A DNA stretch of 64,000 bases. Source: a virus (lineage: Duplodnaviria; Heunggongvirae; Uroviricota; Caudoviricetes). The DNA lies in IMG/VR virus record IMGVR_UViG_3300023082_000008, positions 1 through 64,000 of that record, one strand, 5' to 3'. Below, piece after piece: positions 22,896 through 62,049 of this stretch. The stretch's first letter is position 1. Each line of letters starts with the position of its first letter. Both the position numbers and the translations under genes were made by a program. The notes under the pieces are model-generated. The model saw only the letters and a program-made list of their open reading frames with translations. It ran no database searches and was not told where the DNA came from.

Positions 22896-23044
22896 GCCTA
22901 GACGAGTTTCGAGCCCTGTCGTCGTCAGAGATGGAAGAGCACTTGCTTTCCGTCACTGCCCTGTGCTACGATGGTGCACCCAAGTCCCTTGCTCGCAAGG
23001 TTGAACTTTACATCCAGCGAATTAGAAATGAGCGAAGCCGATGA
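22892..23044 (+). CDS. small hypothetical protein (50 aa)
   Basis: Operon-consistent with ATGA overlaps. Confidence 0.35.
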   Translation: MSLDEFRALSSSEMEEHLLSVTALCYDGAPKSLARKVELYIQRIRNERSR

Positions 23045-23490
23045 AGAAGATGAGAGACGCTGTCATTTTTGACATGGACGGCACACTGGCTGACGTGTCG
23101 AGCATCCGTCACCACGTAACCGCTGGTCAGACCGACTTTCACGCGTTCCACATGGCCTCGGTCGACGTGCCTGCGCATCAGGACATCGTTGAGGAACTGT
23201 ACCGTCATCAGGCTGACAACAAGGCAATTGTGATTGTCACGGCTCGGAACGAGCGGTACATGAACGTGACCGTGTGGTGGTGCCTGTTCGCCGGTATCAC
23301 GTACGATCAAATGTACTTCCGCCCTAGGGACGATCAGCGTCCTGACGTGGAGGTCAAGCGCGACATTCTGGCTCAACTGCGCAAGGATGGATTCAACCCT
23401 GTCCACGCCTACGATGACAACCCGAGCATCGTGAACCTGTGGGCTGAGGAAAACATTCCTTGCACCGTCGTTCCGGGGTGGATCGAGTGA
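23041..23490 (+). CDS. HAD-superfamily phosphatase (Pnk 3'-phosphatase-like)
   Basis: VIFDMDGTLAD (DxDGT motif I), IVIVTAR (motif II) and YDDNPS (motif IV). 149 aa. Lies two genes upstream of the CCA-adding enzyme. Confidence 0.65.
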   Translation: MKKMRDAVIFDMDGTLADVSSIRHHVTAGQTDFHAFHMASVDVPAHQDIVEELYRHQADNKAIVIVTARNERYMNVTVWWCLFAGITYDQMYFRPRDDQRPDVEVKRDILAQLRKDGFNPVHAYDDNPSIVNLWAEENIPCTVVPGWIE

Positions 23491-23726
23491 CTCTCGTAGA
23501 TAAGAAAATTTCCGACATGCACTTCGAGTGTTCGCTACAAACGCACAATTTCAAGCGGGGCGGTACGGCAATGAGCGATTGTTGCCGCCGTCCCGCTACA
23601 GCAGCCGTCATTATGCCTAATGGTGATAAGATGTGGCGCTGTGGTGCACATTACAATGTTCGATCCATTATGCCTTTGGCTATGGGACCATGGGTCTTCA
23701 AGATTAAGGTGCCTAATGATCTTTAG
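23487..23726 (+). CDS. Cys-rich hypothetical protein
   Basis: GTGA overlap start. Contains CCRRP and CGAHY. An ATG at 23517 is an alternative start. Confidence 0.4.
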   Translation: MTLVDKKISDMHFECSLQTHNFKRGGTAMSDCCRRPATAAVIMPNGDKMWRCGAHYNVRSIMPLAMGPWVFKIKVPNDL

Positions 23727-23916
23727 TGATAAATGGGGTGAGCACCAGCACGAAGTTTCAGTGCCGGGAAGACCTTATGATCCATCTAGGCCGATCACTT
23801 GCGCTTCCTGCATCAATAGGCTAGACTCTTCCATGAACGCATGGTTAGACAAACTGACCAAGCGCGAGAATCTCCCTCCCAAATTCTGGGACGGATACAA
23901 GTTTTCTTGGAGTTAA
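23717..23916 (+). CDS. small Cys-containing hypothetical protein
   Basis: 66-aa ORF containing CASCINRL. Confidence 0.4.
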
Positions 23917-23917
23917 T

Positions 23918-24673
23918 ATGCAGATGTACGAAGTGGGCGGTTGCGTCCGAGACGAACTGATGGGCCACAAGTCCAGCGATATTGACTTTACCGTTGAGTT
24001 GTCTGGAAATGAAGATGCTTGGCACACGCCTCTCGGTACCGACCCCTTCCTTGTGATGGTGGCAGAACTTGAGCGTCGTGGATTTCAGATTTTTGCCACT
24101 ACGCCTCACTTTTTTGTGGCCAAGGGCAAGTTCCCCAAGACTCCTGAGTTTGCTCATTACGGTGGGCTCGTGGCTGACTTCGTGCTGGCCCGCAAAGAAT
24201 CCACTTACAGTGACGGTCGTCGTCCCGACGTAGTTGCCGTTGGCAATTTGTACGATGACCTCGCCCGTCGTGACTTCACGATGAATGCCATTGCCAAGGC
24301 AGAGGACGGCACGCTGATCGACCCGTTTGGTGGCCAGGCAGCGATTGAGGGCCGGTTTATTCAGACCGTGGGTGACCCTCACCTTCGTTTTCAGGAGGAC
24401 GCTCTGCGGGCCGTGAGGGCTCTTAGGTTCAGCGTGACAAAGGGCTTCCGCATCGCGGACGGTACGAAGTTTGCCATGGAGTCCATGGCTGTGCTTCACG
24501 CTATCAACACGAACATCTCTGACGAGCGCATCATGGCAGAACTATCTAAGATGTTCCGATTCGATACCATTGATTCGCTTGCTGCACTCAACAAGTTTCC
24601 GCAGTTGACTCGCGCCATGTTTTCTGGTAAGGTCAACCTTGACGCAACGATGAAGACCAAGAACAGGGGTTGA
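23918..24673 (+). CDS. cca: tRNA nucleotidyltransferase (CCA-adding enzyme), head domain, class II Pol-beta type
   Basis: N-terminal YEVGGCVRDELMGHKSSDIDFTV matches the GGxVRD...DxD signature of class II CCA-adding and poly(A) polymerases. RRD and ERI motifs are also present. Confidence 0.75.
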   Translation: MQMYEVGGCVRDELMGHKSSDIDFTVELSGNEDAWHTPLGTDPFLVMVAELERRGFQIFATTPHFFVAKGKFPKTPEFAHYGGLVADFVLARKESTYSDGRRPDVVAVGNLYDDLARRDFTMNAIAKAEDGTLIDPFGGQAAIEGRFIQTVGDPHLRFQEDALRAVRALRFSVTKGFRIADGTKFAMESMAVLHAINTNISDERIMAELSKMFRFDTIDSLAALNKFPQLTRAMFSGKVNLDATMKTKNRG

Positions 24674-24918
24674 TTATGGTAGCGACACTGGGCGATCTAC
24701 AGAGCATGTACGAGCGCGGCAACACTGGCGAATTCAGTCACATGATTATCAAGATGGACGTAATGGATTACTCCGATTATCCTGTTTACGTTGCCAAGGG
24801 TGAAAACCCACGTGAGGTTTCCCAGAACGAGGGCGGTAGGACCATGGAGTGCTACAGTTACGCTCTCGGCTGGGAGATTCAGTCCAAGGAAATTCGAGCC
24901 AATCACTGGGAGATGTAA
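24670..24918 (+). CDS. hypothetical protein
   Basis: 82-aa ORF with ATGA overlap. Confidence 0.5.
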   Translation: MIMVATLGDLQSMYERGNTGEFSHMIIKMDVMDYSDYPVYVAKGENPREVSQNEGGRTMECYSYALGWEIQSKEIRANHWEM

Positions 24919-25238
24919 TGGGAAACCGAACAACCATGTCTCTGAGCGAGATTTACGTCAAGCGTCAGCGGGCCATGGATGAACTGTCTGACCTTGAAAA
25001 GGCTGAGGCTGAAATCAAGGCTCAGTACAAGGACTTGGCCATGGCCATGCACAACACCTTGTGTTCCCAGAATCATACCGACGTCTGTGGCTGGGACTAC
25101 GAGGGAAACGACTGGACCAGTTACGCGCATGCCAAGTGGCTCAAGCGTGCTCAGGCATTCATGGCTGAATGTAGCGAATCCACTGAGGATGAACTCGTGG
25201 CTCTGATGGGTGCTCTCAAGCGAAGCAAGTCAGTCTGA
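24918..25238 (+). CDS. hypothetical protein
   Basis: In-frame ATG overlapping the upstream TAA (TAATG). Confidence 0.5.
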   Translation: MGNRTTMSLSEIYVKRQRAMDELSDLEKAEAEIKAQYKDLAMAMHNTLCSQNHTDVCGWDYEGNDWTSYAHAKWLKRAQAFMAECSESTEDELVALMGALKRSKSV

Positions 25239-25606
25239 TGGGGCACCGTCACGAGTATGGTACGGTGCTGTTTACGGTATTTGAGGCTTGGGTTCCAAAC
25301 GGGGCCGGTACAATGAAATGCGTCGGTCAGTGGTCTGCGACTAAGGATGCCTATATTAGCGCTCGGTCTGATCCCGATAAGTACTCTGTACCGGCTGACG
25401 GAGAAATCCGTGAAATTATCTACACCTCTTGCGGTGTGACTCATATACAGTGCAACTATGTTTGCGTGCTTAAGCAGCGCGTTTACAACGGCAACCAGTC
25501 TTACTGGAAGCCGGGTGAGAATGGTTGGTCACTCAAGCACGACCCTCGCAAGGATGACCCGGAATACCAGCAGTATCTTGCTCTCAAAAAGAAGTTCGAA
25601 AAATGA
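25238..25606 (+). CDS. hypothetical protein
   Basis: 122-aa ORF with ATGA overlap. Confidence 0.5.
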   Translation: MGHRHEYGTVLFTVFEAWVPNGAGTMKCVGQWSATKDAYISARSDPDKYSVPADGEIREIIYTSCGVTHIQCNYVCVLKQRVYNGNQSYWKPGENGWSLKHDPRKDDPEYQQYLALKKKFEK

Positions 25607-25795
25607 GGCACAAAATTGTATCCAACGTTAGCCTGTGGGCTACAAATCCTTGGAGAGGTCTTGCCAAGGCCGACACATCTGTGCTACTCTATGATTCCTC
25701 CCACAGCATGCCGGACACTTTTCGGCTAGGGTTCGGGATTATTTTCCTCGGACTTGACATCATTTTTTTCAAGAAAAACTAGCAAAGGACTGAAT

Positions 25796-26056
25796 ATGTC
25801 GAACTGGACTCAGAAGCCTCATAACATCACCAACAAGGCGCACGTCCTTGACTACGTTACCAAGGCTGGTGCCAAGGGCGTGACCGTTGTTGAGGTTCGC
25901 CGCGATACCGGTTTCCATCACGGGCAGGCCTCTGGCTCGCTCTCAATGCTTGACCTTGACGACAAGGTTTCTCGCTTGTATGAGAAGCGTGACGGTTACT
26001 CGATTTACGTTGTCGCTGGCTCCGAGGCTGGTCGCACGGTTATTGCGCGCTCATGA
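25796..26056 (+). CDS. hypothetical protein (possible winged-helix DNA-binding)
   Basis: ATG at 25796 with an AAAGGAC ribosome-binding site. 86 aa. Confidence 0.5.
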   Translation: MSNWTQKPHNITNKAHVLDYVTKAGAKGVTVVEVRRDTGFHHGQASGSLSMLDLDDKVSRLYEKRDGYSIYVVAGSEAGRTVIARS

Positions 26057-26316
26057 AGTACCTCAAGCCGGTACATTTCATTGTAGGGTTTTTGCGGGCC
26101 TTTATTCTTCCTTACAACTATCGCTCTTTGTTCATGGGAAAAATCAAGGTCGCGGTGTACCTGCACGGTGGTACGATTTTGTATATCAAGTGTTCAAAGT
26201 ACACTATTACCCTTGGTGATGAAACCGCTAAGTACAATTTCTCTGACTTTCAAGAACAGTTCAAGATCAAGCCTACGCACATCGAGGCCATTCGTGTAGT
26301 TGACTGGTTCCGGTAG
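26053..26316 (+). CDS. hypothetical protein
   Basis: 87-aa ORF with ATGA overlap. Confidence 0.5.
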   Translation: MKYLKPVHFIVGFLRAFILPYNYRSLFMGKIKVAVYLHGGTILYIKCSKYTITLGDETAKYNFSDFQEQFKIKPTHIEAIRVVDWFR

Positions 26317-26345
26317 TTGACAGACTAATTTCAGTCTGATACACT
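26317..26345 (+). promoter_or_regulatory. promoter TTGACA-17-TACACT
   Basis: TTGACA 26317-26322, TACACT 26340-26345. Drives a tRNA cluster. Confidence 0.5.
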
Positions 26346-26428
26346 TGAGAGAACAAATACAGGGGACTAGTAATCTAACAGATCACTGGCTGGTTAAAGG
26401 CAGCCGTTACTAGGAACCGGATATTTAT

Positions 26429-26501
26429 GGGTTATTAGCACAGTGGTTACTGCATTCGGTTCTTACCCGAAGGAACCTCGGTTCGAATCCGAGATAACCC
26501 A
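26429..26501 (+). tRNA. tRNA-Lys (anticodon CTT), second copy
   Basis: Acceptor GGGTTAT pairs with ATAACCC. Anticodon arm TTCGG-TTCTTAC-CCGAA. T arm CTCGG-TTCGAAT-CCGAG. Confidence 0.75.
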
Positions 26502-26623
26502 CAAAGACAGAAGTCGACGTCTGTCTAGTAAGTGGCACGACGGTGCTGGTTCTTCGGAACTATTGAATATGCTGGACAACACATAGAAACCGAGTATTCA
26601 TCCTTACGTGAAAATTGCAGTTT

Positions 26624-26695
26624 GTTACATTCGACGAATTGGTTAAGTCACATGAGTAATATCTAGAGATGCAGGTTCGAGTCCTGCATGTGACG
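26624..26695 (+). pseudogene. tRNA-shaped gene with perfect acceptor, D and T arms but no foldable anticodon arm (pseudo-tRNA or atypical)
   Basis: Acceptor GTTACAT pairs with ATGTGAC 7 of 7. T arm GCAGG-TTCGAGT-CCTGC. The anticodon region CATGAGTAATATCTAGAGAT does not fold. Confidence 0.4.
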
Positions 26696-26709
26696 GCTGC
26701 AACAATCAT

Positions 26710-26782
26710 GTCCCATTAGAGTAGCGGTTATCTCGTTTGATTCTCAGTCAAAAGATCGTCGGTTCGAATCCGACATGGGATG
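26710..26782 (+). tRNA. tRNA-Glu (anticodon CTC)
   Basis: Acceptor GTCCCAT pairs with ATGGGAT. Anticodon arm TTTGA-TTCTCAG-TCAAA. T arm GTCGG-TTCGAAT-CCGAC. Same scaffold as tRNA-Glu(TTC). Confidence 0.8.
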
Positions 26783-26813
26783 CATTTTACCATCTACAGA
26801 AAGAACCGTCATT

Positions 26814-27029
26814 ATGGAAAATGTTCGTCACGCCTCTGGTGAAAACACCGAGGTTTATTGCATTGAGGTTCCTACAGAGAATCCCGACTATGCCGCCGTG
26901 CTTTTCGAGAAGTTGGCCAAGTTGGTTGCCAAGAGCCACCCTGAGGGTCGATATGTTTCCGCTCTCAATGGTCCCTACTTCGTTGACTATGACTCGCACT
27001 ACGTCATTGACGTACACTTCTCTGTCTGA
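26814..27029 (+). CDS. hypothetical protein
   Basis: ATG at 26814 after an AGAAAGAACC ribosome-binding site, immediately downstream of tRNA-Glu. Confidence 0.5.
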   Translation: MENVRHASGENTEVYCIEVPTENPDYAAVLFEKLAKLVAKSHPEGRYVSALNGPYFVDYDSHYVIDVHFSV

Positions 27030-27067
27030 TAGACTCTGTCTACACCCTCTAAAGAAAGAGTTCTACT

Positions 27068-27478
27068 ATGAGTGATATCTTCGGTTCCCCTCGTCCACGA
27101 CCTCCCCGTCCCGGCTACCGTTACCGTCGTAGCAGTGATCATGGGTTCCTTATCCTGCTCGTGGTGCTTGCTATCTTCGCTGCAATTGTCGTTGGTTTTG
27201 TAGTCAAGGCGTATTACGGCGAGGACCAGCACACGGCCTGTGTTGTCTCTGATAAGGATCGTGTATCCAAGAGCGAGGGCGGTAGCGAGATGCGAGTCTA
27301 CACTGACAACTGCGGAACCTTCGTAGTATCAGATGGAGTCATCAAGACAGACTTCAATTCGGCTGATCGGTATGCTAAGATTAAGGTTGGAAAGACCTAC
27401 GACATTACTTCATATGGTTTTCGCTTCGGTTTGACAAGTTCTTTCCCCAAGATCATTGACGCCACCGAAGTCAAGTGA
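27068..27478 (+). CDS. membrane-anchored hypothetical protein
   Basis: Basic N-terminus followed by TM helix FLILLVVLAIFAAIVVGFVV. 136 aa. Confidence 0.55.
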   Translation: MSDIFGSPRPRPPRPGYRYRRSSDHGFLILLVVLAIFAAIVVGFVVKAYYGEDQHTACVVSDKDRVSKSEGGSEMRVYTDNCGTFVVSDGVIKTDFNSADRYAKIKVGKTYDITSYGFRFGLTSSFPKIIDATEVK

Positions 27479-27534
27479 TAGACTCCTACTCGTAGCAGCA
27501 ATACTTTCCCGTCCGTTAAACAGTTAGGAAATAC

Positions 27535-28437
27535 ATGTTTTCAATTTTTGTCATGGCAGCCTTCATTGCCATTGCGGCTTTTCTCCTCATCAAGGGTCGT
27601 ATCACTTGGACCAAGCAATCTGGCTACAGCGATGTAAGTGAACACTCACATTCACTCCGACCATACGCTGCTATTCCAATTGTTCTTCTGCTGCTCGTTG
27701 CTTTCTTCTCGTTTACAACGCGCGTTGAGGCCAAGCAGGTTGGTGTTCTTAGCACATTTGGCAAGCCTTCTGACAAGACATACGGTTCCGGTCTGGCATT
27801 CCACATGCCTTGGCAGGAGATGACCCAGATCGACGCCACAACTCAGACCAATGAGTATCACGGTGGCAACGCTCTCAAGGTCATTCTGGCTGACAAGAAC
27901 ACGGCTGACATTTCAGTTACTATCCGATGGGCTGTCAACCCGAAGAACGCGAACGACGTGTATGCTGACTTCCGTTCGAATGATCCCACCGAATCGTTGC
28001 GCAAGGCTGTTGTTTCAACACAGTTGAAGGCTGCACTGAACACGGTATTCAATGGTTACGACGCCACGGCTGAAAAGCCCGCAACGCCTGATGACCTTTC
28101 CAAGCAGGTTGAGAGCATCCTCAAGACCCGCACGGACGAACTGGTCAACATCAAGTCGATTACGATTTCTTACATCAAGCCTGACGCGACCGTTCAGAAG
28201 AAGATTGATCAGTTGCAGAGCCAAAAGGCCCAGACCAAGGTGGCAGCCGAGAAGGTTCTTACCGCTGATCAGGAAGCACAGGCCAACCGTAAGTTGTCCG
28301 AATCAGTTAGCAATGATCCGAACGTGCTTGTTTCCAAGTGCCTCGACCTCATTGCCGATGGTGACCTTAACCCTCCCGCTGGTTTCTCTTGCTGGCCGGG
28401 ACAGGGCGGTAGCGTAGTAATTCCCTCAACTAAGTAG
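27535..28437 (+). CDS. SPFH/band-7 (prohibitin/HflK-like) membrane protein
   Basis: Two N-terminal TM segments then an SPFH-like core (VEAKQVGVLSTFGKPSDKTYGSGLAFHMPW...) and a coiled-coil tail. Confidence 0.6.
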   Translation: MFSIFVMAAFIAIAAFLLIKGRITWTKQSGYSDVSEHSHSLRPYAAIPIVLLLLVAFFSFTTRVEAKQVGVLSTFGKPSDKTYGSGLAFHMPWQEMTQIDATTQTNEYHGGNALKVILADKNTADISVTIRWAVNPKNANDVYADFRSNDPTESLRKAVVSTQLKAALNTVFNGYDATAEKPATPDDLSKQVESILKTRTDELVNIKSITISYIKPDATVQKKIDQLQSQKAQTKVAAEKVLTADQEAQANRKLSESVSNDPNVLVSKCLDLIADGDLNPPAGFSCWPGQGGSVVIPSTK

Positions 28438-28467
28438 TTGACAGCACTCGAAAGAGTGTGATAGACT
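28438..28467 (+). promoter_or_regulatory. promoter TTGACA-18-TAGACT (spacer contains the hairpin CACTCGAAAGAGTG)
   Basis: TTGACA 28438-28443, TAGACT 28462-28467. Drives the Tyr/Ser tRNA cluster. Confidence 0.5.
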
Positions 28468-28515
28468 ACTAGAAGTTGATTGGTGGGAGTCACCAAGTAA
28501 AACTAAAACTCACTT

Positions 28516-28586
28516 GGCGTACAGCGTAGGCTGTGTCGGCGTGGCTGTAAACCACCTCCGTTCCGGTTCGAATCCGGGGTACGCCA
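28516..28586 (+). tRNA. tRNA with GTA anticodon loop (Tyr-like) but class I length, weak D arm; possible pseudogene
   Basis: Acceptor GGCGTAC pairs with GTACGCC 7 of 7. Anticodon arm GTGG-CTGTAAA-CCAC. T arm TCCGG-TTCGAAT-CCGGG. Confidence 0.5.
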
Positions 28587-28597
28587 CAGAGCAGTTA

Positions 28598-28620
28598 CAA
28601 GGTGCAACCTTGATTTTTTG
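28598..28620 (+). terminator. rho-independent terminator inside the tRNA cluster
   Basis: CAAGGT-GCA-ACCTTG hairpin followed by ATTTTTTG. Confidence 0.55.
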
Positions 28621-28691
28621 GAGTCGCGTCTAGAAATTAGCGGGGCTGGGTCTCAGTACCCAGTTACACGTGCAACTGCCGACAAATTCAT

Positions 28692-28774
28692 GCATCATTA
28701 TTCCGTAGGGGTAGCGGGACTGGCTGTAAACCAGTTGTCATTAGACTCGGGTGGTTCGACTCCATCATGGTGTA
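28692..28774 (+). tRNA. tRNA-Tyr (anticodon GTA), class II
   Basis: Acceptor GCATCAT pairs with ATGGTGT. Anticodon arm ACTGG-CTGTAAA-CCAGT. Variable-arm hairpin GTC-ATTA-GAC. T arm GGTGG-TTCGACT-CCATC. Confidence 0.75.
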
Positions 28775-28881
28775 CAAACGGTGTCCCCTCGCACAGAGGG
28801 AAATCACAGTGAGGTAATAGCCCGTATGAGTCCTCACAACCTTACCCAGCAATGATTCTGTGCGGATCAGGTAAGGACATT

Positions 28882-28972
28882 GGAGAGTTATCCGGACAGG
28901 CGACGCCGGTGCTGCCTTGAAAACAGTTAGGTCCGTTAGTAGCGGGCTGGGGTTCAAATCCTCAACTCTCCG
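28882..28972 (+). tRNA. tRNA-Ser (anticodon TGA), class II; CCA encoded at 28973-28975
   Basis: Acceptor GGAGAGT pairs with ACTCTCC. Anticodon loop CTTGAAA. Long variable arm GTCCG...CGGGC. T arm TGGGG-TTCAAAT-CCTCA. Then G and CCA. Confidence 0.7.
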
Positions 28973-28981
28973 CCACACTGA

Positions 28982-29042
28982 CTGATCCCGAACGTACGGT
29001 ACGCAAATGTAAGAATCGACGTATCCCGGTTACACGGTCAGC
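28982..29042 (+). repeat. about 61-bp dispersed repeat, copy 2 (partner at 8170-8230)
   Basis: CTGATCCCGAACGTACGGTACGCAAATGTAAGAATCGACGTATCCCGGTTACACGGTCAGC. Confidence 0.6.
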
Positions 29043-29085
29043 GGTGTTTATACATTAGTAAGAACCGTCAATAGAAAGTAATCCT

Positions 29086-29949
29086 TTGAATATTATTGCA
29101 ATGGATCAAGAGAGAAAGGGTCTTGACGTTATCGTCAATGGCGCTGATCCTATCTATGTAACTGATCCGCATTCTTTGATCCTACCGTCCGGTGGCGGGG
29201 TCATTGTTGCTGATGGAAATGTTTGGGGACTACCCAACGGACTTTCTGTTTCCCAGTTTGTCTGGACTGACAAAGAGGACCGCAACGATTTCATAGAGTC
29301 GGCGGTAGCACAGGGCTACGCTTGCAGATCAGTCAATACCAAGTATGCTGAGGGTCTGTACAAGATTCGTAAAATGGAACCAGAAGATGCTGTTATTGCC
29401 TTGTATGATAAGGTCAAGGCCAGTTATGATGAAAAGGGTCGTTACGATTCCGCTAAGGCGGTACGTGACTCTCGCGGAGATATCTCTTTTGGTCAGCAGC
29501 AGATCGTTGTTGGTGATTTTCTAAGAATTCAAAATCTTGATAACTATGATTCTGACTTCATGCGCAATGGCATTCAGATTGCATGGGATGCTCTGGACAA
29601 GCCCGGAAGAGAGATGTTTGGTATGACCAAGACGCTTCCCAAGATGGGCGCTAATAAAACCCCCAATCGAATCGCCGCAGTACTGGCTTGCACACACGAT
29701 CCTGCCACTGGCGAGCGCAGGGAATTCAATGGTCTGCCATGGGGCAAGCAGTTTATTATCAGGCGCGTGATCGGCCTTTCTGGCATGATGAGAGGTACTG
29801 GGCCAACCGCACCGGGCAACCCAATGCGCGCGGTACTCAGAATCCTTGGCCGTAGAAGCACCAATAGCATTAATGTAGAAGAGAGAAAGCAGATGGACAA
29901 ATACGTTGCCCAACTGATTGACGCTTTTCAACAGCATCCAACAATTTAG
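29086..29949 (+). CDS. hypothetical protein
   Basis: 287-aa ORF. Confidence 0.6.
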   Translation: MNIIAMDQERKGLDVIVNGADPIYVTDPHSLILPSGGGVIVADGNVWGLPNGLSVSQFVWTDKEDRNDFIESAVAQGYACRSVNTKYAEGLYKIRKMEPEDAVIALYDKVKASYDEKGRYDSAKAVRDSRGDISFGQQQIVVGDFLRIQNLDNYDSDFMRNGIQIAWDALDKPGREMFGMTKTLPKMGANKTPNRIAAVLACTHDPATGERREFNGLPWGKQFIIRRVIGLSGMMRGTGPTAPGNPMRAVLRILGRRSTNSINVEERKQMDKYVAQLIDAFQQHPTI

Positions 29950-30139
29950 ACTTGTGAGGGTCGAGACTAACCCCGTTGGTATGGTTGGCATGCAGAAATG
30001 TTATGACCAACCCCGGAGACATGGCCAGCAGGCCCTCACAAACCATTTTACCGACCAACCCCGACGACATGGCTGGCACATAGAAATATGGTGATCAACC
30101 CCGGACGTATGGCTGGCGGTAATTCAATTTAGGAGAATA

Positions 30140-30325
30140 ATGAGCACGTGGAATGATAGAATTACTACCGCCCAGTGCTACTGTGGTTCTCGTCATTTCA
30201 CCATCTGGATTTCTTTCGATGAGGATGGTACACTAGCAACACATAGTCTAGATATGAACTGTCTAGAATGTGGGGCTAAATTCAATATTCCAACAGCACT
30301 TGACCCTGCTGCTGATTTACGCTAG
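30140..30325 (+). CDS. small zinc-ribbon-like hypothetical protein
   Basis: 61-aa ORF containing CYCGSRH and CLECGAKF. Confidence 0.45.
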   Translation: MSTWNDRITTAQCYCGSRHFTIWISFDEDGTLATHSLDMNCLECGAKFNIPTALDPAADLR

Positions 30326-30334
30326 GATGGTTTC

Positions 30335-30703
30335 ATGAGCAAATGGGATGAATACGGAACAAAAGACCCCGACGCGCCATGGAATCGTGAGTACCCTCGT
30401 GCTTTCAACCGACGCAAAAAGACCAACAAATGGTGTAAGGGCAAGGTTGGAGTGAAGCACGAGTACGCTCTCAAGGATCGCTGGGATTGTTTCTGGGAAG
30501 TAAAAACCAACACATATGTTGGACGATACCCCAACTGGAAGCGCGGCATCCGTGCAATTTGGCGCTGCGGTTGTCAGTTGCGTTGCGTAGGATGCAATAA
30601 GCACAGTTGGACTTCATCTTTTTATGGAGATTGTTTGCACCTTGATGATAAGGTTCGAACCCGTCCAAAGGCTGATGAGTACGAAATGTATCACTGGCGC
30701 TGA
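30335..30703 (+). CDS. Cys-rich hypothetical protein
   Basis: 122-aa ORF with several Cys, including CKGKVG and CGCQLRCVGC. Confidence 0.5.
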   Translation: MSKWDEYGTKDPDAPWNREYPRAFNRRKKTNKWCKGKVGVKHEYALKDRWDCFWEVKTNTYVGRYPNWKRGIRAIWRCGCQLRCVGCNKHSWTSSFYGDCLHLDDKVRTRPKADEYEMYHWR

Positions 30704-30704
30704 C

Positions 30705-30733
30705 TTGACGGGCCGGTAGCAAGATGCTACACT
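30705..30733 (+). promoter_or_regulatory. promoter TTGACG-17-TACACT
   Basis: TTGACG 30705-30710, TACACT 30728-30733. Confidence 0.5.
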
Positions 30734-30760
30734 TGTTACGCACAGCAAGGAAGTGATTGA

Positions 30761-30820
30761 ATGTATATCGGACTAGGCACTCTTGTGGTAGTAGTTGTAC
30801 TGCTCATCATCTTTCTATAA
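30761..30820 (+). CDS. tiny hydrophobic peptide (19 aa)
   Basis: MYIGLGTLVVVVVLLIIFL with a strong AAGGAAG ribosome-binding site 7 nt upstream. Confidence 0.35.
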   Translation: MYIGLGTLVVVVVLLIIFL

Positions 30821-31085
30821 CTAAATATTTTGATCAATACGGACTATCGCGCACACGAGTAACACAACATGTCGTGTGGGAGGAACCTCCGGACTGCTAC
30901 GACAGAGCCGTGTAGTTTTGCTTTGACAAGCGCTACTAAGCCCAATTTAAAAAACAGGGTGCAGGCATATGGCAGCAATCTCAAGCAGTATGAGCGACTG
31001 TCGTCGTGATGAAATACGGGTAGAGAGCAAAGGTGGATGATAGTCTTAAATGACAGAATCCGGGGTATGTGATTGGTCAATTCAT

Positions 31086-31168
31086 GCTAGCGTGGTGGAA
31101 TGGTATGCACAGTCGTCTCAAAAGCGACCGGTCGAAAGATCATGCGGGTTCGACTCCCGTCGCTAGTA
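31086..31168 (+). tRNA. tRNA-Leu (anticodon CAA), class II
   Basis: Acceptor GCTAGCG pairs with CGCTAGT. Anticodon arm GTCGT-CTCAAAA-GCGAC. Variable-arm hairpin. T arm GCGGG-TTCGACT-CCCGT. Confidence 0.75.
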
Positions 31169-31590
31169 CAAACTGTAAAAGAACTGCCAGCACAGGCCCG
31201 GTAATGCGCCGGTATACAGTGAAAACGTGTTACAGGTTATAGGGCTTACGCGTCCGGTACCGTGCCTCTTGGCCTTGGCTATGTAACTACTGGAAACCGC
31301 AACAGGATAAGGGAGTAACGGCCCAAGCGGACAAGGAAAGTCAGCCCGGTGGGCTCCGGGAACATCTTGCTAAGATGATTGGTCCTGAAAGGGACTGGGG
31401 ATCGTGCCCTCGGCTTTCCGCTGAAATTGCTACTACCCCCGGCACTTCGGTGCGTCTGTCATAATAATGTAGTTTAAACAGGGGCCATGGTTGACTCCCT
31501 TGGGCAATTTCAACATCTTGGGGATGGTCGCAACAGCGCATCTTAAATGAGGGTTTTGTCCCCGCCCAAGTCCAATGAAATGGAGGCGTC

Positions 31591-31797
31591 ATGAGACAGG
31601 AACCGGCCCCGTGTCCGTTCATTGAGGCATGGAAAGGCGTCTGCGGAAAGCCTACCAGACTAGGATATTGCCCTGAGCACCTAGGCATCTCTTGTTTTCG
31701 TTGTGACATACAAGCCAATAGAAATTGCGCACACACCGGCTATGGTGTGTGCTTAACCCCAATGTGTGACGACCATCGCCACCATTCAGATGGATAG
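31591..31797 (+). CDS. Cys/His-rich small protein
   Basis: 68-aa ORF with at least 8 Cys. Confidence 0.45.
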   Translation: MRQEPAPCPFIEAWKGVCGKPTRLGYCPEHLGISCFRCDIQANRNCAHTGYGVCLTPMCDDHRHHSDG

Positions 31798-31803
31798 GAT
31801 AGT

Positions 31804-32073
31804 ATGAAGTATATTAAGACGAACGTACCCGAGCCTGCACCGGTACCGCCTCTAACGCACACGATTGAAATCACTCAAGAAGAACTTGATTTTATCGTGT
31901 CAGCGTCGCACGCTTTTGGCAAACAGGGTTTTAATCTAATTGGTGCTGGCGATTTTTTCAATGGACAAGAGCACGAAGTAATAAGCGAGTATAAAGAAGT
32001 AGCGTTTCGTTTGGCAGATGAATTGTTAACTGTCCGTACCCATAGCCCTGTTTTCAGAAAGATCGGTAAATAA
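31804..32073 (+). CDS. hypothetical protein
   Basis: 89-aa ORF. Confidence 0.5.
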   Translation: MKYIKTNVPEPAPVPPLTHTIEITQEELDFIVSASHAFGKQGFNLIGAGDFFNGQEHEVISEYKEVAFRLADELLTVRTHSPVFRKIGK

Positions 32074-32289
32074 ATGCTAGACGAAAAGCGTGAGTACGTC
32101 TTGTACTCTTCGTACACAGGTGATACACTAGGCAAGTTCGACAGCCGCAAGGAAGCCAATGTCGAGCGTAACATTTCAGAGCGTGACGGAGACTATTCCA
32201 CACGTATTCGTACTATCGTCACACAGGTAGAAAGATTTCCTGTGAAGCCGGTATCGACAGAAAGTAATCACAATGAGCCTTCTTCGTAA
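32074..32289 (+). CDS. hypothetical protein
   Basis: 71-aa ORF. Confidence 0.45.
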   Translation: MLDEKREYVLYSSYTGDTLGKFDSRKEANVERNISERDGDYSTRIRTIVTQVERFPVKPVSTESNHNEPSS

Positions 32290-33256
32290 TAAGTCCGACG
32301 AGGTCGTCAAGAAGGGCGTCCTTGATCGTGGAGAGTTTAACCCTCCTGCCGATTCGTTCCATCTCAAGATGTATAAGTACTGGGAGCGGAATACCGGCGC
32401 TAGGATTCCCAAGACAGAGAACTTTTGCCATTACTGGCGCGTTGTTGCGCTGTGGAGTCCTCTTACTTTCATTCGTGAGAAGTTCCTCGATGCAATTGTT
32501 GTCAGCACTACGTGGCTGATTCTGACAGCCCTGTATGTTCTTGGTGCTATTGCGCTGGGCGTGTTCTCATCGTTCTGGTTCCCGGTTATTATGCTGGGTG
32601 TCCCTTACATTCTCGCTGGTATTGTTTCAGGCGGTGTCTCCTATACAACAGGAGAAGGATTCGGAAATCTTGATGAAGATGATACGGTGGACAAGCGTGC
32701 ATTCAAGTTAGCCACATTTATTACCGCTCCCATTAGCCTAGCACTGTACGGTATTCTCAACTTCTTCGAATTTGTTGGGGACAAGGCTGACGATATGTCT
32801 AATAAGACCAAGAAGCGTCTTGACGATGTTTTCAAAATTTTTATTGGCCTAATTATTGTAGGTTTAATTTCTATTCTTGCAATTGCTGGTGTTTCTGATT
32901 TTGGATGGATTTTCTTCGCTTACGCAGCCGGTGCTATTGTTGCCCTTCTAGCATTCGTTGTTGGTGCGTCATTCCTGATTGCCAAGATCGAGGCTATTGG
33001 CAACGCAAAGCGTGAGGCCAAGAGAGAGCGCCGCGAGAAGTACATTAATGGTGAAATTACTGCCGAGGAGTACTTTGGAAATTCGTGGGAGCCGGGTAAG
33101 ATTTACAATTTCTTCGACCGATTCCTATTTACGCCCGCTGCTAAGGTTCTGACGCCTGTGGGAGACTTCCTTGTGCTGGCATGGAACGTGGTGCGAGTCA
33201 AGAAGTGGAAGATTTGCCCCATTGTGAACATTCCTGCGGAGCGCGTTTCCGAGTAG
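32273..33256 (+). CDS. polytopic membrane protein
   Basis: 327-aa ORF with at least 6 hydrophobic helices and a KREAKRERREK charged segment. Confidence 0.6.
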   Translation: MSLLRNKSDEVVKKGVLDRGEFNPPADSFHLKMYKYWERNTGARIPKTENFCHYWRVVALWSPLTFIREKFLDAIVVSTTWLILTALYVLGAIALGVFSSFWFPVIMLGVPYILAGIVSGGVSYTTGEGFGNLDEDDTVDKRAFKLATFITAPISLALYGILNFFEFVGDKADDMSNKTKKRLDDVFKIFIGLIIVGLISILAIAGVSDFGWIFFAYAAGAIVALLAFVVGASFLIAKIEAIGNAKREAKRERREKYINGEITAEEYFGNSWEPGKIYNFFDRFLFTPAAKVLTPVGDFLVLAWNVVRVKKWKICPIVNIPAERVSE

Positions 33257-33292
33257 AGTGCGGTAGGAACGGTACAGACTTATACTTAATGC

Positions 33293-33541
33293 ATGAGAAT
33301 GTACCGTTCCTACCAGACCTTTATCACATGGTATAGACACCCTGCTCAGCAGCGTGTACTATACAAGTACCGCAAATGGTTCTGGGTGTTACTATTGGCA
33401 GCATCCATTCCAACAGGGTGGATTCTTTCAACAGCGTTCATCTCGGCGTTGTCTATTATCGCTTTGTTCATTGGTGACAGCAGCGCTGAAATGGCAGCAG
33501 AAGGAACACTTGAGCAGAAAAAGTTGACAGAGTCAGACTGA
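33293..33541 (+). CDS. small membrane protein
   Basis: 82-aa ORF with two TM helices. Confidence 0.5.
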   Translation: MRMYRSYQTFITWYRHPAQQRVLYKYRKWFWVLLLAASIPTGWILSTAFISALSIIALFIGDSSAEMAAEGTLEQKKLTESD

Positions 33542-33612
33542 GCATGTTAGACTTGACGTAGTCAATGACAGCCGCCAATTGTAAGGGGCGGGGTAAAAAT
33601 ACCAAACACCAT

Positions 33613-33685
33613 GGTTGCGTATTCCAACGGCAGAGAAACACGGCTTAGACCCGTGACAGTGTGGGTTCGAATCCCACCGCAACTA
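33613..33685 (+). tRNA. tRNA with anticodon TAG (Leu-type) but class I length
   Basis: Acceptor GGTTGCG pairs with CGCAACT. Anticodon arm CACGG-CTTAGAC-CCGTG. T arm GTGGG-TTCGAAT-CCCAC. A canonical class II tRNA-Leu(TAG) follows at 33958. Confidence 0.55.
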
Positions 33686-33690
33686 CAATG

Positions 33691-60399: not shown

Positions 60400-60425
60400 T
60401 TAACTCCTATATGTGATATTGGTCA

Positions 60426-60866
60426 CTAAATTACTTCGCCGCGCGACTTAATTCGCTGTAACGCCGCTGCTCGGTCGTCTACACTAAAAGAATATAGCCG
60501 ATCAAAGGCCTTGTTCTCTTCCAGTGACGCTTTTCTATAATCTCTTAGTGCTTTTTCAACGGCAATCTCGTGCGTTGCCTCACCAGACAGGCCGGTATAG
60601 GCTTCGGGAACCTCGACAGTCTCGAAACTCTTGACGCAAGCCGTAACAGTACCGGGCTCAACCTCGGTACGACCCTGATCTTGAAAGTATACACCATTGA
60701 GGGCATTCTCAACAATACGTGTAGGAGACTCCTGCAAAACGATTACCGCGCCGTGGTCAGTGTGACCATAGTGATCCAGCGCAACGTGCACAGCGTGTGC
60801 TGCCTGCTTACCTCGTGACATATTCTTGTTCACGAGAATGACCATGCGGCCCTCTGTTTCAGTCAT
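60426..60866 (-). CDS. PTH2-family peptidyl-tRNA hydrolase-like
   Basis: N-terminal MVILVNKNMSRGKQAAHAVHVAL parallels the PTH2 core (MVLVVRTDL-MGKGKIAAQCSHAA). Confidence 0.45.
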   Translation of the reverse strand: MTETEGRMVILVNKNMSRGKQAAHAVHVALDHYGHTDHGAVIVLQESPTRIVENALNGVYFQDQGRTEVEPGTVTACVKSFETVEVPEAYTGLSGEATHEIAVEKALRDYRKASLEENKAFDRLYSFSVDDRAAALQRIKSRGEVI

Positions 60867-60999
60867 AGTACCTTCTCAAAATAGCGTTCGATGATCTTGA
60901 CAACGATTCTGGCATCCTTAGGAGTGAGGCTGGTGTTTGAAGACCAGTCCGCATTCTTTTTGAGATTTTCTAGAATCTTGGCAACTTCCTCAATTGAGG

Positions 61000-61269
61000 T
61001 CATCCGGGGTATGCCTCGTCAATCTTCTTGTCGACGGCGTCGAGGCCCATTTGCTGCCAAAGTGCTACATCAGCAGCGTCTGGTCCAAAGATTGCACCGT
61101 ATGAAATATCTACCGGCTCGTTGAGGATGATTTCGCCTTCTTTTACACCGTAGATATTCCGCAAAGCAGTGACGACAATGGTTCCTTTTCGGTCGGTGTC
61201 GTCGTCATAGATGACCTCCAACTTCCAATCACCCTTGTCGATGGTGTTAATGTAAGCCATATCACTCAT
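61000..61269 (-). CDS. hypothetical protein
   Basis: Start at internal Met (MSDMAYINT...) to avoid a long overlap with the upstream gene. Confidence 0.4.
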   Translation of the reverse strand: MSDMAYINTIDKGDWKLEVIYDDDTDRKGTIVVTALRNIYGVKEGEIILNEPVDISYGAIFGPDAADVALWQQMGLDAVDKKIDEAYPG

Positions 61270-61558
61270 CAGGTGCTCCATAGCGCTCGCGGAGGCGATC
61301 CACAAGGGACTTTTCCTCCATGTTGTAGAAATTGGTAGCCGTGGTACGGTCGTCGCCGGTAACGTCACGCAGATTCCAGAGCAACTGAGTGAGTCTCATG
61401 TCTGGGTACATACGCCAAACACGCTTGACTTCGTCCAAAACGTCATCAATTCGCTCAATAGGACGAGTTGTGCGCTGGGTAATTTCACTACCGGGGACAA
61501 CAGACGCGCCGGTGCGTGTAATCTTGACCTTTGGGTCTTTTGGATCAGCCATTAGCAC
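61262..61558 (-). CDS. hypothetical protein
   Basis: 98-aa ORF. Confidence 0.45.
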   Translation of the reverse strand: MLMADPKDPKVKITRTGASVVPGSEITQRTTRPIERIDDVLDEVKRVWRMYPDMRLTQLLWNLRDVTGDDRTTATNFYNMEEKSLVDRLRERYGAPDE

Positions 61559-62049
61559 TCCGTGAAATAGTTGTAAATCTCACGCATGGCGCGAACATCG
61601 CCACCAGCGGTGTGATCGGGCGTTGAAATCTCAATACCCTGCTCTTCGAACCAGTTGAAGATGCCCTTCATGCCCATAGGAGCCCGCGTGTTATCAATCT
61701 GGGCCGTGGCCCACGACTCAATATCCAAGAGCCTGTAGTGAGCGGGAAATGAGCCCCAGCGTGCAAGCAACTTGTCCCGGTCAAAGGATGGGTTGGCTGC
61801 GATGATGGTTGTCTCGGGCGTGATCATGGAGAAGAGACGGTGTTCTTCCTTCGGTTCCCACACGAACGGGTTGGATGCGCCACGGTTGACGTAATCTGTC
61901 ATTTCAAGAGCCTTTTCACTGGCTCCTACAGTCGTGTGAGAAACAAAGAATGATCGAACCGGGCCGGTGAGTTCGGCGTAGCCAATCTCCCATACCTGAT
62001 GATGGGGCTCAAGACCCGTGGTCTCGGTGTCTAGAAACAGGAAACTCAT
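61552..62049 (-). CDS. DnaQ-like 3'-5' exonuclease (DEDDh)
   Basis: Exo I motif FLDTETTGL near the N-terminus, then Exo II/III-type HTAGGDV near the C-terminus. 165 aa. Confidence 0.7.
   Translation of the reverse strand: MSFLFLDTETTGLEPHHQVWEIGYAELTGPVRSFFVSHTTVGASEKALEMTDYVNRGASNPFVWEPKEEHRLFSMITPETTIIAANPSFDRDKLLARWGSFPAHYRLLDIESWATAQIDNTRAPMGMKGIFNWFEEQGIEISTPDHTAGGDVRAMREIYNYFTEC

Follow-up and report, generated by a model that had tools for sequence, protein, structure and literature searches.

The window, the whole stretch of 64,000 nucleotides analysed here, belongs to a phage genome that was assembled as a circle of ~126 kb, and makes up its non-structural accessory arm. The genes for rIIA/rIIB, WhiB and relatives among the actinophages mark it as phage DNA, and the last two point to an actinobacterium as the host clade. 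The RNAs of the region, and the genes that are or have been grouped with them, are the following:

975..37743, + strand: tRNA gene region, with 36 ARAGORN tRNAs, 2 weaker Rfam-only ones and small ORFs in between
15204..15591, + strand: phage tmRNA (RF00023, 66.2 bits; gathering score 47)
17533..17937, + strand: GOLLD RNA, full length (RF02032, 187.7 bits; gathering score 150)
23041..23490, + strand: stand-alone HAD 3'-phosphatase of the T4 Pnkp type (HAD_PNKP, E = 7e-18; phrog_415, E = 4e-37)
23918..24673, + strand: short class II tRNA nucleotidyltransferase, 251 aa, head and neck only (Pfam, PHROG and PDB matches, motifs)
30831..31083, + strand: minimised bacterial type-A RNase P-like RNA, 253 nt (RF00010, covariation)
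35550..36209, + strand: 2H phosphoesterase with HSTL and HITV motifs (fold, LigT/ThpR-type sequence matches)
38915..39862, + strand: calcineurin-type metallophosphoesterase (Pfam Metallophos, E = 3e-16; phrog_1649)
43985..44656, + strand: Gad2-family nucleotidyltransferase, the second NTase of the window (PF26128; class II CCA-enzyme-like fold)
60426..60866, - strand: divergent PTH2-type peptidyl-tRNA hydrolase (motifs, profile search)
61552..62049, - strand: DEDDh (DnaQ-like) 3'-5' exonuclease (DEDDh motifs; phrog_192 'DNA polymerase exonuclease subunit', E = 6e-19)

The tRNA genes found by ARAGORN all lie on the + strand; Rfam reports 27 tRNAs at the gathering score and, in E-value mode, two that ARAGORN misses (17951-18022 and 26624-26695). 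An earlier note on this DNA had counted about 41 tRNAs for at least 19 amino acids, many of them with an encoded CCA, between 23041 and 62049. The number is 36-38, and that range holds just 14 of the 36 ARAGORN tRNAs, the other 22 lying at 975-19578; the coverage is in turn complete, with 31 distinct anticodons for all 20 amino acids among the 36. The statement on CCA was too generous: only 11-12 of the 36, about one third, carry it in the genome, and about two thirds are thus dependent on CCA addition. In M. tuberculosis, a member of the host clade, more than half of the tRNAs need CCA addition, according to an excerpt of PMC10673834.

Three further RNAs, overlooked in the earlier note, accompany the tRNAs. 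The tmRNA, for which low-threshold ARAGORN predicts the non-canonical tag DDYDVVAGAEAILANASLVTV, and the GOLLD RNA, which is followed directly on its 3' side by the tRNA-like element 17951-18022, are both inside the array. The third, the RNase P-like RNA, ends 3 nt ahead of tRNA-Leu(caa) (31086-31169) and matches RF00010 with 58 bits over model positions 1-367 (E = 2.4e-15 over 40 kb, 4e-17 locally), below the gathering score of 100. It retains P1, P2, P3, the P4 pseudoknot, P5 and the GGU of P15/L15, with the specificity domain cut down to ~70 nt. Elements of this kind occur within tRNA arrays on 7 IMG/VR contigs and at 20 of 32 metagenome loci, as well as, unannotated, in four cultured Microbacterium phages; one relative (L003) keeps it with compensatory changes in P1 and P2, and in a relative whose proteins are just 58-63% identical the RNA is 89% conserved. 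Of the cells in six distinct sequences, 96.5% pair, whereas sliding the partners leaves 29-43%; compensatory changes are seen in 29 of 53 pairs, and none of 500 shuffles reaches this. P4 pairs throughout (100%), with three compensatory states.

Compared to bacterial type A RNase P RNA (RF00010), the phage RNAs share P1-P5 with the P4 pseudoknot, the GCAA of J5/15, the GGU of L15 and the ACAGAA.CCGG block, but are 221-305 nt long rather than ~350-400 nt, with P7-P14 shrunk to ~70 nt and the P16/P17 region missing; further, they sit inside phage tRNA arrays, and their P4 core bases vary compensatorily. Known minimal RNase P RNAs include those of Mycoplasma fermentans (~276 nt) and the type T RNA of Pyrobaculum. 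The phage RNA might be no working ribozyme at all: it could be the decayed remnant of a gene captured from the host, a decoy that binds up host RnpA and so shuts off the host's tRNA maturation, or a structured spacer that serves the processing of the tRNA transcript. This would agree with the score below threshold, the loss of most of the specificity domain, the lack of conservation in the flanking ORFs and the failure to find a phage protein cofactor (RnpA); it would also agree with the window copy altering two nucleotides of the P4 core, A67 and G68 (E. coli numbering), which are to our knowledge universally conserved in RNase P RNA. Simple decay is, however, ruled out by the covariation across divergent phages; moreover, the invariant columns (GAGGAA..UCCGG, GCAA, CGGGUA, ACAGAA.CCGG) fall on the catalytic core and on the elements that contact the substrate, and RNase P RNAs that are naturally minimal or consist of the C domain alone are active when protein is present. 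We thus consider a non-ribozyme role unlikely.

The six ORFs named in the earlier note all lie exactly where it placed them, and four of them plausibly belong to an RNA or tRNA set: the HAD phosphatase, the class II tRNA nucleotidyltransferase, the 2H protein and the PTH2. The nucleotidyltransferase, taken there for a CCA-adding enzyme, falls into the class II tRNA nucleotidyltransferase family (PolyA_pol head, E = 3e-19; PHROG tRNA nucleotidyltransferase, E = 7e-48; PDB 1miv, E = 4e-28), with the motifs GGCVRD...DID, RRDFTMNA and EDALR. Short homologues of ~245 aa bear the same annotation, tRNA nucleotidyltransferase, in phages of Microbacterium, Arthrobacter, Synechococcus and Cellulophaga. 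It lacks the body and tail domains, which anchor the tRNA in full-length CCA enzymes. The E. coli multifunctional CCA addition/repair enzyme has, in addition, an HD domain with activities of its own. With this enzyme (NF008137) the phage protein shares the class II head and neck, as well as the concept of a 3'-end repair that joins phosphoesterase and CCA-adding activities, but it ends after the neck, without an HD domain; phosphoesterase activity, if any, would thus come from separate genes (HAD, 2H, metallophosphoesterase).

The first of these, the HAD phosphatase, is of the Pnk type, as had been proposed: it has the DMDGT nucleophile motif and a C-terminal DD, aligns with the phosphatase domain of T4 Pnkp (5uj0) and with Pnkp1, and shows no kinase domain within 23041-23490, while its homologues in cluster C mycobacteriophages carry the label 'polynucleotide kinase'. 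Its place two genes upstream of the CCA enzyme holds here, but the adjacency is not kept in LinStu, Frankenweenie and Cece. The 2H gene starts 53 nt past tRNA-Gln(ttg), and its product, which has an N-terminal helical or disordered extension of ~80 aa, has a true 2H fold; the earlier assignment to LigT-like cyclic phosphodiesterases holds in this respect, but the fold, which matches viral 2-5A/cGAMP phosphodiesterases about as well as RNA cyclic phosphodiesterases, cannot separate it from phosphodiesterases of nucleotide signals. The metallophosphoesterase, which is near the 2H gene also in two relatives (L003 and L004), is possibly an extra end-healing phosphoesterase; enzymes of its superfamily can have 2',3'-cyclic phosphodiesterase activity, as stated in an excerpt of PMC2190708.

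The two remaining ORFs of the six probably lie outside the RNA set. The second NTase was confirmed as an ORF with an NTase fold, but PF26128 is recorded for it (P0024) and for all of its at least 120 listed homologues, placing it in the Gad2 (anti-Gabija) family, and it reads EDFFE, without the Arg of the nucleotide-templating EDxxR motif; it is thus probably a counter-defence protein rather than a tRNA-care enzyme. With the Gad2 of SPbeta-like phages (Yirmiya et al., bioRxiv 10.1101/2023.05.01.538930), the mechanism of which is not known in that paper, it shares the family and a predicted nucleotidyltransferase domain, but it has 223 aa rather than ~400 aa, and its anti-Gabija role is putative. 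The DnaQ-like exonuclease is encoded in a leftward operon beside the ThyX, HIT, RNR and glutaredoxin genes, a setting of DNA metabolism that the earlier note itself had named as speaking against such an assignment; the phage genome encodes a DnaE-type Pol III alpha, and the exonuclease is most likely its proofreader.

The window is rich in counter-defence genes, located in one early region with the RNA set: NADAR, the DarG-like macro domain, the Prs-like/NAMPT-like pair and, probably, the Gad2-family NTase. This speaks for the reading that only the tRNAs, tmRNA, CCA enzyme and PTH2 serve translation. In that case, the 2H protein would be an immune-signal phosphodiesterase (Acb1-like or 2-5A-like), the HAD protein a DNA or nucleotide 3'-phosphatase and the second NTase an anti-Gabija protein, all being neighbors only because large phages pool early accessory and counter-defence genes in one region. 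Pnkp-type phosphatases act also on DNA 3'-phosphates and nucleotides, and homologues of the HAD protein in other phages adjoin terminase, Ser/Thr kinase and PurA genes. Against this, the best sequence-level matches of the 2H protein are LigT/ThpR models; its nearest viral fold neighbors are actinophage 2H proteins labelled 'RNA ligase', with Acb1 just in 44th place; relatives, too, have its gene lodged among tRNA genes; and the HAD gene is two genes away from the CCA enzyme. This reading is somewhat unlikely, if the strongest of the alternatives.

Between the last tRNA and the PTH2 gene, which runs in the opposite direction, there are 22 kb. Its product retains the GK...H and D.GRTE motifs and has a C-terminal helical extension, with ~25 middle residues deleted; as a single sequence it scores 22 bits against a Pfam cut-off of 23, but a 15-sequence profile retrieves PTH2 structures only (best E = 1.2e-7), which supports the earlier assignment to a divergent PTH2-like hydrolase.

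The earlier note had left open whether this set repairs tRNAs cleaved by host anticodon nucleases. Such repair needs a 5' kinase and an ATP-dependent ligase, or else RtcB, which in turn needs the 3'-phosphate or cyclic phosphate that a 3'-phosphatase removes. As noted before, no RNA ligase or polynucleotide kinase is found in the window at the Pfam/PHROG level; with 10 kb added at either end, the search covers 84 of ~126 kb and still shows no kinase, Rnl or RtcB domain. T4-style repair of the anticodon loop is thus not supported. Completion by host RtcB, as the note had suggested, is inconsistent in itself, since the HAD phosphatase would strip the end that RtcB requires. From the T4 Pnkp-Rnl1 system, the phage shows in these 84 kb just the 3'-healing half, with the DxDGT and DD motifs conserved and neither 5' kinase domain nor ligase. 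What speaks for heal-and-seal repair (cf. T4 Pnkp/Rnl1) with the sealing enzymes elsewhere in the genome, besides the Pnkp type of the phosphatase, is that ~42 kb lie beyond the 84 kb searched, that the related cultured phage Zooman, unlike the phage in these 84 kb, has an RtcB-like ligase, 2 kb from its tRNA array, and that 2H, CCA enzyme and PTH2 recur in phage RNA-repair gene sets (PMC7824862). In jumbo phages, however, stand-alone healing enzymes usually accompany ATP-grasp ligases (PMC7824862), and none is seen here. Heal-and-seal repair is thus distinctly improbable, and the better fit is a route that supplies and matures tRNAs and heals their 3' ends without a ligase.

A tRNA set with a few real tRNA-care enzymes is an ordinary combination in large phages, and the idea of a phage toolkit for tRNA care is already published for the RNA-repair and ribosome-rescue sets of jumbo phages (Iyer, Anantharaman, Krishnan, Burroughs, Aravind 2021, PMC7824862). 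These share many tRNAs, HAD phosphatases (including stand-alone ones), 2H, CCA-adding enzyme and PTH2 with the phage described here, which, at ~126 kb, is not a jumbo phage and, unlike them, shows no RNA ligase, kinase or RlaP NTase in the 84 kb. Comparable, too, are actinophages rich in tRNAs (Microbacterium phages Zooman, Big4, A3Wally and Cece; cluster C mycobacteriophages such as LinStu; Streptomyces phage Coruscant), which have large tRNA arrays, a stand-alone Pnk-type phosphatase and, in one region, rIIA/rIIB, the Prs-like/NAMPT-like pair and the short tRNA nucleotidyltransferase, and, in the four Microbacterium phages, the mini RNase P-like RNA; there is, however, no similarity at the nucleotide level, and protein identities are just 28-49%. 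The RNase P-like RNA is a new element: we found no description of it for any phage, and RNase P has 0 occurrences in the jumbo-phage overview (PMC7824862).

The earlier observation is thus largely real, and its interpretation stands in part: without the break-repair reading, DnaQ and the second NTase, it leaves a phage that invests heavily in its own tRNA pool. By a modest balance of probability, the core of the region is an island for tRNA supply and maturation, rather than for T4-style break repair. The 36-38 co-oriented tRNA genes would be transcribed and RNase P would take off the 5' leaders, with the phage RNA, the structure of which is borne out by covariation, adding activity together with host RnpA; the short class II nucleotidyltransferase, clear in its family, would then add CCA. 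[quoted passage not shown]

ARAGORN predicts 36 tRNA genes between 975 and 37743, all on the forward strand, with 31 different anticodons that together cover all 20 amino acids; Rfam finds 27 tRNAs at its gathering score and, in E-value mode, two elements that ARAGORN does not call (17951-18022 and 26624-26695), of which, at a lowered threshold, one resembles a weak tRNA-Lys(ctt) and the other is an odd element without a clear anticodon. The large set described in the earlier note is thus borne out, its count of about 41 being a modest overcount and its 'at least 19 amino acids' an undercount; the interval it assigned to the set left the first 22 tRNAs outside. Its remark that many of these tRNAs have an encoded CCA is wrong in emphasis, since two thirds of them do not (genomic CCA is present in only 11-12 of the 36). 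Other structured RNAs accompany the tRNAs, all three listed here having been overlooked.

Structured RNAs accompanying the tRNA genes
15204-15591, forward strand: tmRNA (Rfam 66.2 bits)
17533-17937, forward strand: GOLLD RNA, full length, inside the tRNA region (Rfam 187.7 bits)
30831-31083, forward strand: mini RNase P-like RNA

For the tmRNA, low-threshold ARAGORN predicts the tag DDYDVVAGAEAILANASLVTV, flagged 'not identified' and lacking the usual terminal degron of ALAA type; no SmpB is found in the 84 kb examined of the ~126-kb genome. GOLLD is known within tRNA clusters of mycobacteria (PMC6582537); here it is directly followed by the weak tRNA-like element at 17951-18022 (39.7 bits; Lys-ctt at low threshold). 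As in the window, GOLLD, tmRNA and mini RNase P occur together on an IMG/VR contig (L006).

The RNA at 30831-31083 matches bacterial type A RNase P RNA (RF00010) with 58 bits, against a gathering score of 100, and E = 2.4e-15 in Rfam E-value mode; it spans the whole of the model (1-367) in only 253 nt and ends 3 nt before tRNA-Leu(caa). The catalytic core is in place, with the P4 pseudoknot between GAGGAAAGUCCGG and ACAGAA.CCGGCUUA (strands kept as GAGGAA..UCCGG and ACAGAA.CCGG), P1-P3, P5, GCAA in J5/15, and P15 with the CGGGUA that carries the GGU of L15. A full specificity domain is absent, as is a score at the gathering level: P7-P14 shrinks from about 140 model positions in the bacterial type A RNA to some 70 nt, and there is no P16/P17 region. 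The 305-nt RNA of a related locus (L018) reaches 101 bits against the same model.

That this RNA is real and under selection is indicated by its conservation in a relative, its covariation, the states of P4, and its recurrence in the tRNA arrays of phages and metagenomes. The relative on NCBI contig JAWVHH010000272.1 carries the same RNA in the same place, 89% identical to the window copy and with compensatory changes in P1 and P2, on a contig whose proteins are only 58-63% identical. A pattern built from the conserved blocks retrieves seven IMG/VR contigs, each with a copy of 221-305 nt that scores 66-101 bits against RF00010 inside or beside a tRNA array, one of them also carrying GOLLD and tmRNA. 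Across six distinct sequences, 96.5% of the cells pair in a structure made up of P1, P2, P4, P5 and the P15 region, compared with 29-43% when the partners are slid, and 29 of the 53 pairs show compensatory changes, a level reached by none of 500 shuffles; P4 itself takes three forms, each with compensating changes in both strands (AAAGU/CUU, AACCU/GGU and AAGUU/GCU). The conserved-block pattern finds 32 metagenome contigs; in 20 of them two or more tRNAs lie within 1 kb, and some copies belong to arrays of 15-40 tRNAs. Among 185,579 species genomes its only matches are on three MAG contigs, from Elusimicrobia and a CPR bacterium; these lie outside tRNA arrays and are probably those organisms' own reduced RNAs. 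In all, the searches yield roughly 40 mini RNase P sequences.

Among cultured phages, blastn with the canonical copy of a related locus (L007) gives no match, and blastn with the window copy gives weak matches only, which led to Microbacterium phage Zooman. The RNA is present in four cultured phages of Microbacterium foliorum (Zooman, Big4, A3Wally and one more), in a gap between tRNA genes that is left unannotated; in Zooman (OK040793.1, 89338-89558; L019, 2837-3057), the unannotated RNA of 221 nt takes up exactly the space from tRNA-Arg(ccg) to tRNA-Arg(cct).

Our reading of its function is tentative, and we give it slightly less than an even chance: large actinophages and many uncultured relatives would encode a reduced bacterial-type RNase P RNA (~220-305 nt), carried like a tRNA inside tRNA arrays and predicted to be a functional ribozyme that works with host RnpA or cuts the adjoining tRNA in cis. 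This RNA and the phage CCA enzyme would between them free phage tRNA biogenesis from most of its dependence on the host. Few natural RNase P RNAs of bacterial type would be smaller, and compensated changes in the P4 core would be tolerated. Alternatively, the RNA may sequester host RnpA as a decoy or serve as a spacer for processing: it lies under the Rfam threshold, two P4 bases that we take to be universally conserved are altered in the window copy, no Pfam match to RnpA is present anywhere in the 84 of ~126 kb examined, and the ORFs flanking the RNA are not conserved. A small basic protein encoded upstream was considered as a phage analogue of RnpA and set aside, the flanking ORFs of the window and of a relative's locus with similar gene order (L003) being dissimilar by eye. 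A scan for promoters and terminators around the RNA performs no better than on shuffled sequence. Beyond tRNA-Leu(caa), gene calling on the source contig leaves some 630 nt (31170-31803, forward strand) empty; the counterpart gap in L003 measures only ~220 nt. RNase P is generally seen as an essential ribozyme that is strictly cellular; full-text literature searches, which do not reach many subscription papers, returned no description of an RNase P RNA encoded by a phage.

Genes for putative tRNA-directed enzymes, and their neighbours, follow the tRNA set.

Enzyme genes and neighbouring genes
23041-23490: Pnkp-type HAD 3'-phosphatase
23918-24673: short class II tRNA nucleotidyltransferase (predicted CCA-adding enzyme)
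35550-36209: protein of the 2H phosphoesterase superfamily
38915-39862, forward strand: calcineurin-type metallophosphoesterase
40288-40560, forward strand: WhiB-like regulator
60426-60866: PTH2-like protein
61552-62049: DnaQ-like exonuclease
L012 (DNA to the right of the window) 7057-7410, ~2.6 kb past the window's right end: HIT/DcpS_C-family hydrolase, next to ThyX

By sequence, the assignment of the CCA-adding enzyme to class II holds: motifs A, B and D of the head are intact (GGCVRD..DID, RRDFTMNA and EDALR), and it matches PolyA_pol (E = 3e-19) and PDB 1miv (E = 4e-28). With 251 aa, it consists of head and neck only; the body and tail domains, which bind the tRNA elbow in full-length enzymes of ~390-470 aa, are missing, and alignments stop at about query residue 215-235, equivalent to about residue 203-263 of 400-aa enzymes. 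Short versions of this kind recur among phages as a family (phrog_24229, a profile of 245 positions). The multifunctional CCA/repair enzyme of E. coli combines phosphoesterase and CCA-adding activities in one protein; its HD domain is absent from the phage enzyme.

The HAD protein, two genes upstream, is likewise what it had been taken for: it matches HAD_PNKP (E = 7e-18) and phrog_415 (E = 4e-37), aligns over its whole length with the phosphatase domain of T4 Pnkp (5uj0, across residues 6-144) and with Capnocytophaga Pnkp1, and contains both the DMDGT motif, with the DxDxT nucleophile of Pnkp 3'-phosphatases, and the DD motif. Unlike T4-type Pnkp, it lacks the P-loop 5'-kinase domain, being a phosphatase alone (149 aa), and no kinase domain is found in the neighbouring genes. 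Its closest homologues are 'polynucleotide kinase' genes of ~150-170 aa in cluster C mycobacteriophages and 'phosphatase' genes in large Streptomyces phages. A search with the HAD protein in IMG/VR and JGI metagenomes returned no loci on which synteny with the CCA gene could be followed in close relatives, and elsewhere the pairing is not kept: the HAD gene lies by the terminase in LinStu and among hypothetical genes in Frankenweenie, and the CCA gene lies by a SpoT-like gene in Cece.

The 2H gene begins 53 nt past a tRNA, and in a relative, too, it lies between tRNA genes. Its product has the two HxT/S motifs (invariant in eight homologues) and the two-lobed fold of its superfamily, and scores above the cut-off of PF13563, in keeping with the earlier description. 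Its top fold matches are mixed (rotavirus VP3 2-5A phosphodiesterase, bacterial RNA 2',3'-cyclic phosphodiesterase, LigT, Usb1, poxvirus cGAMP phosphodiesterase and Acb1), RNA cyclic phosphodiesterases and nucleotide-signal phosphodiesterases being matched equally well; the fold thus does not fix the substrate. Sequence models place the protein modestly nearer the LigT/ThpR side (TIGR02258, E = 3.5e-7, 30.3 bits against a cut-off of 65.7), a side that the nearest viral folds would also modestly favour, these being actinophage 2H proteins labelled 'RNA ligase', with Acb1 ranking only 44th. The metallophosphoesterase and WhiB-like genes follow the 2H gene in an order kept in L003 and in a second such locus, L004. 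PDB searches with the 2H protein (single sequence or profile) and with the metallophosphoesterase were uninformative.

The PTH2-like protein probably keeps its family on profile and motif evidence: a profile of 15 homologues matches PTH2 structures only (1xty, E = 1.2e-7), and the catalytic-site motifs GK..AAQ..H and D-A-G-x-T-E are conserved and aligned. Against the assignment, the single sequence scores 22 bits, under the Pfam cut-off of 23, and some 25 residues between the motifs are deleted from the known fold of ~115 aa; the protein also has a helical C-terminal extension. Its gene lies four genes downstream of the DnaQ-like gene in the same leftward operon, which adjoins ThyX and the HIT gene, with class II RNR, glutaredoxin and a lysin just beyond. 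A place among DNA-metabolism genes tells against an RNA role for the DnaQ-like protein, formerly counted with the RNA enzymes; the PTH2-like gene shares the operon and probably retains its family, the HAD gene lies by the CCA gene and the 2H gene by a tRNA. The DnaQ-like protein has the DEDDh motifs of ExoI, ExoII and ExoIII (FLDTETTG, ANPSFD and HTAGGD) and matches phrog_192, 'DNA polymerase exonuclease subunit' (E = 6e-19); a PDB search was uninformative, and there is no sign of an RNA role. Genes for a DnaE-type Pol III alpha, for RecA and for a dNMP kinase are also present in the genome; the simplest role for the DnaQ-like protein is replication proofreading. HIT enzymes can strip adenylates from nucleic-acid ends or aminoacyl-adenylates; the context of this one looks like nucleotide metabolism.

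No RNA ligase (Rnl1/Rnl2 or RtcB), kinase or RlaP domain is found in the window plus 10 kb on each side (84 of ~126 kb), and a PHROG scan of ten unassigned ORFs, among them the four neighbours of the 2H gene and every one of 230-480 aa, yields neither function nor ligase; Pfam- and PHROG-level scans thus agree with the earlier note that the window holds no RNA ligase or kinase domain. The T4 repair route requires a 5' kinase and an ATP-dependent ligase. RtcB requires a 3'-phosphate or cyclic phosphate, ends that a 3'-phosphatase destroys; completion of repair by host RtcB, as had been proposed, therefore does not fit with the HAD 3'-phosphatase, the only firmly identified healing enzyme. A Pnkp-type phosphatase that stands alone beside a CCA enzyme speaks for ligase-free repair of 3' ends rather than for repair of anticodon loops. 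Cleavage by metal-independent RNases yields ends with a 3'-phosphate or cyclic phosphate; the phosphoesterases would remove it, after which the tRNA 3' end would be rebuilt by the CCA enzyme. We infer that this ligase-free route fits better than the T4 or RtcB routes. As a whole, the earlier observation mostly stands and its repair interpretation does so only in part. A toolkit of phage tRNAs, HAD, 2H, CCA enzyme and PTH2 has already been laid out for jumbo phages (Iyer et al., 2021, PMC7824862), in an overview that never mentions RNase P; by itself, the tRNA-plus-enzymes picture is one more example of this published pattern.

Several genes of the window are more readily connected with counter-defence.

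Candidate counter-defence genes
2943-3479, forward strand: NADAR domain protein (E = 2e-24), within the tRNA region
9050-9931, forward strand: ribose-phosphate-diphosphokinase-like (Prs-like) protein (TIGR01251, E = 4e-24, below cut-off)
9928-11388, forward strand: NAMPT/NAPRTase-like protein (NF006629, 512 bits), overlapping the Prs-like gene
12102-12542, forward strand: macro domain protein (best match DarG antitoxin macrodomain, NCBIfam E = 1.9e-22), within the tRNA region
43985-44656: Gad2-like nucleotidyltransferase

The NADAR and DarG-like macro proteins are candidates for reversing DarT-type DNA ADP-ribosylation. The Prs-like/NAMPT-like pair, also present in Microbacterium phage Cece, presumably resembles the phage pair Adps/Namat (NARP1), which reconstitutes NAD+. 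The protein at 43985-44656, described before as a second nucleotidyltransferase of the tRNA set, is a nucleotidyltransferase and is better placed here, as a predicted counter-defence gene: a precomputed match to PF26128 (Gad2) exists for the exact protein (E <= 1e-5), and the same family is recorded for all 120 of its homologues among the matches listed; a PDB search with its profile was uninformative. Inhibition of Gabija has been tested for SPbetaL7 Gad2 and a Brevibacillus homologue only (bioRxiv 10.1101/2023.05.01.538930).

The remaining landmarks connect the genome to phages of actinobacteria.

Other landmarks of the window
19654-21558: rIIA-like protein
21555-22445: rIIB-like protein
27535-28437, forward strand: SPFH/Band 7 protein (E = 5e-21), between tRNA clusters and kept in L003
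57438-58085, reverse strand: HNH endonuclease

The best relatives of both rII-like proteins belong to Streptomyces, Rhodococcus and Microbacterium phages (28-40% identity), and the gene order resembles that of Cece: rIIA, rIIB, Prs-like, NAMPT-like, then a short tRNA nucleotidyltransferase. From these relatives and the phage-encoded WhiB, the host is most likely an actinobacterium. At the nucleotide level, megablast with 21 kb of the window gives no match among 50,697 records of cultured phages. The window's exact proteins occur on ENA ERZ27228600 contig k141_1069415 (126,220 bp), where record position 1 lies at window position 5269 and record position 120,812 at window position 1; this mapping gives a 141-nt self-overlap of the assembly, which indicates circular closure and a genome of ~126,079 bp. 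Coding strand and GC skew change near 52 kb, where ~700 nt (~51725-52420) have no called gene. In Zooman (L019, 5125-6041), the tRNA array is followed ~2 kb downstream by an ADP-ribosyltransferase and an RtcB-like RNA ligase.

Overall, we read the window as a tRNA supply-and-maturation island, with tRNAs, tmRNA, GOLLD, mini RNase P-like RNA, short CCA enzyme, PTH2-like protein and one to three predicted end-healing phosphoesterases, interspersed with predicted counter-defence genes. Its tRNA and enzyme part is ordinary and well precedented, and what adds interest is the RNase P-like RNA. For two enzymes the reading changes, the stand-alone Pnkp-type phosphatase and the Gad2-like nucleotidyltransferase; an anti-Gabija family with a CCA-enzyme-like fold is a lead to the mechanism of Gad2. 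The RNase P idea is directly testable, since the RNA is present in already-cultured phages such as Zooman, and if true it would account for unannotated gaps in their tRNA arrays. A family of phage mini RNase P RNAs would offer naturally pruned catalytic cores for structure-function work, and, as a natural minimal RNase P, it would mean that viruses take over the 5' maturation of tRNAs as well.
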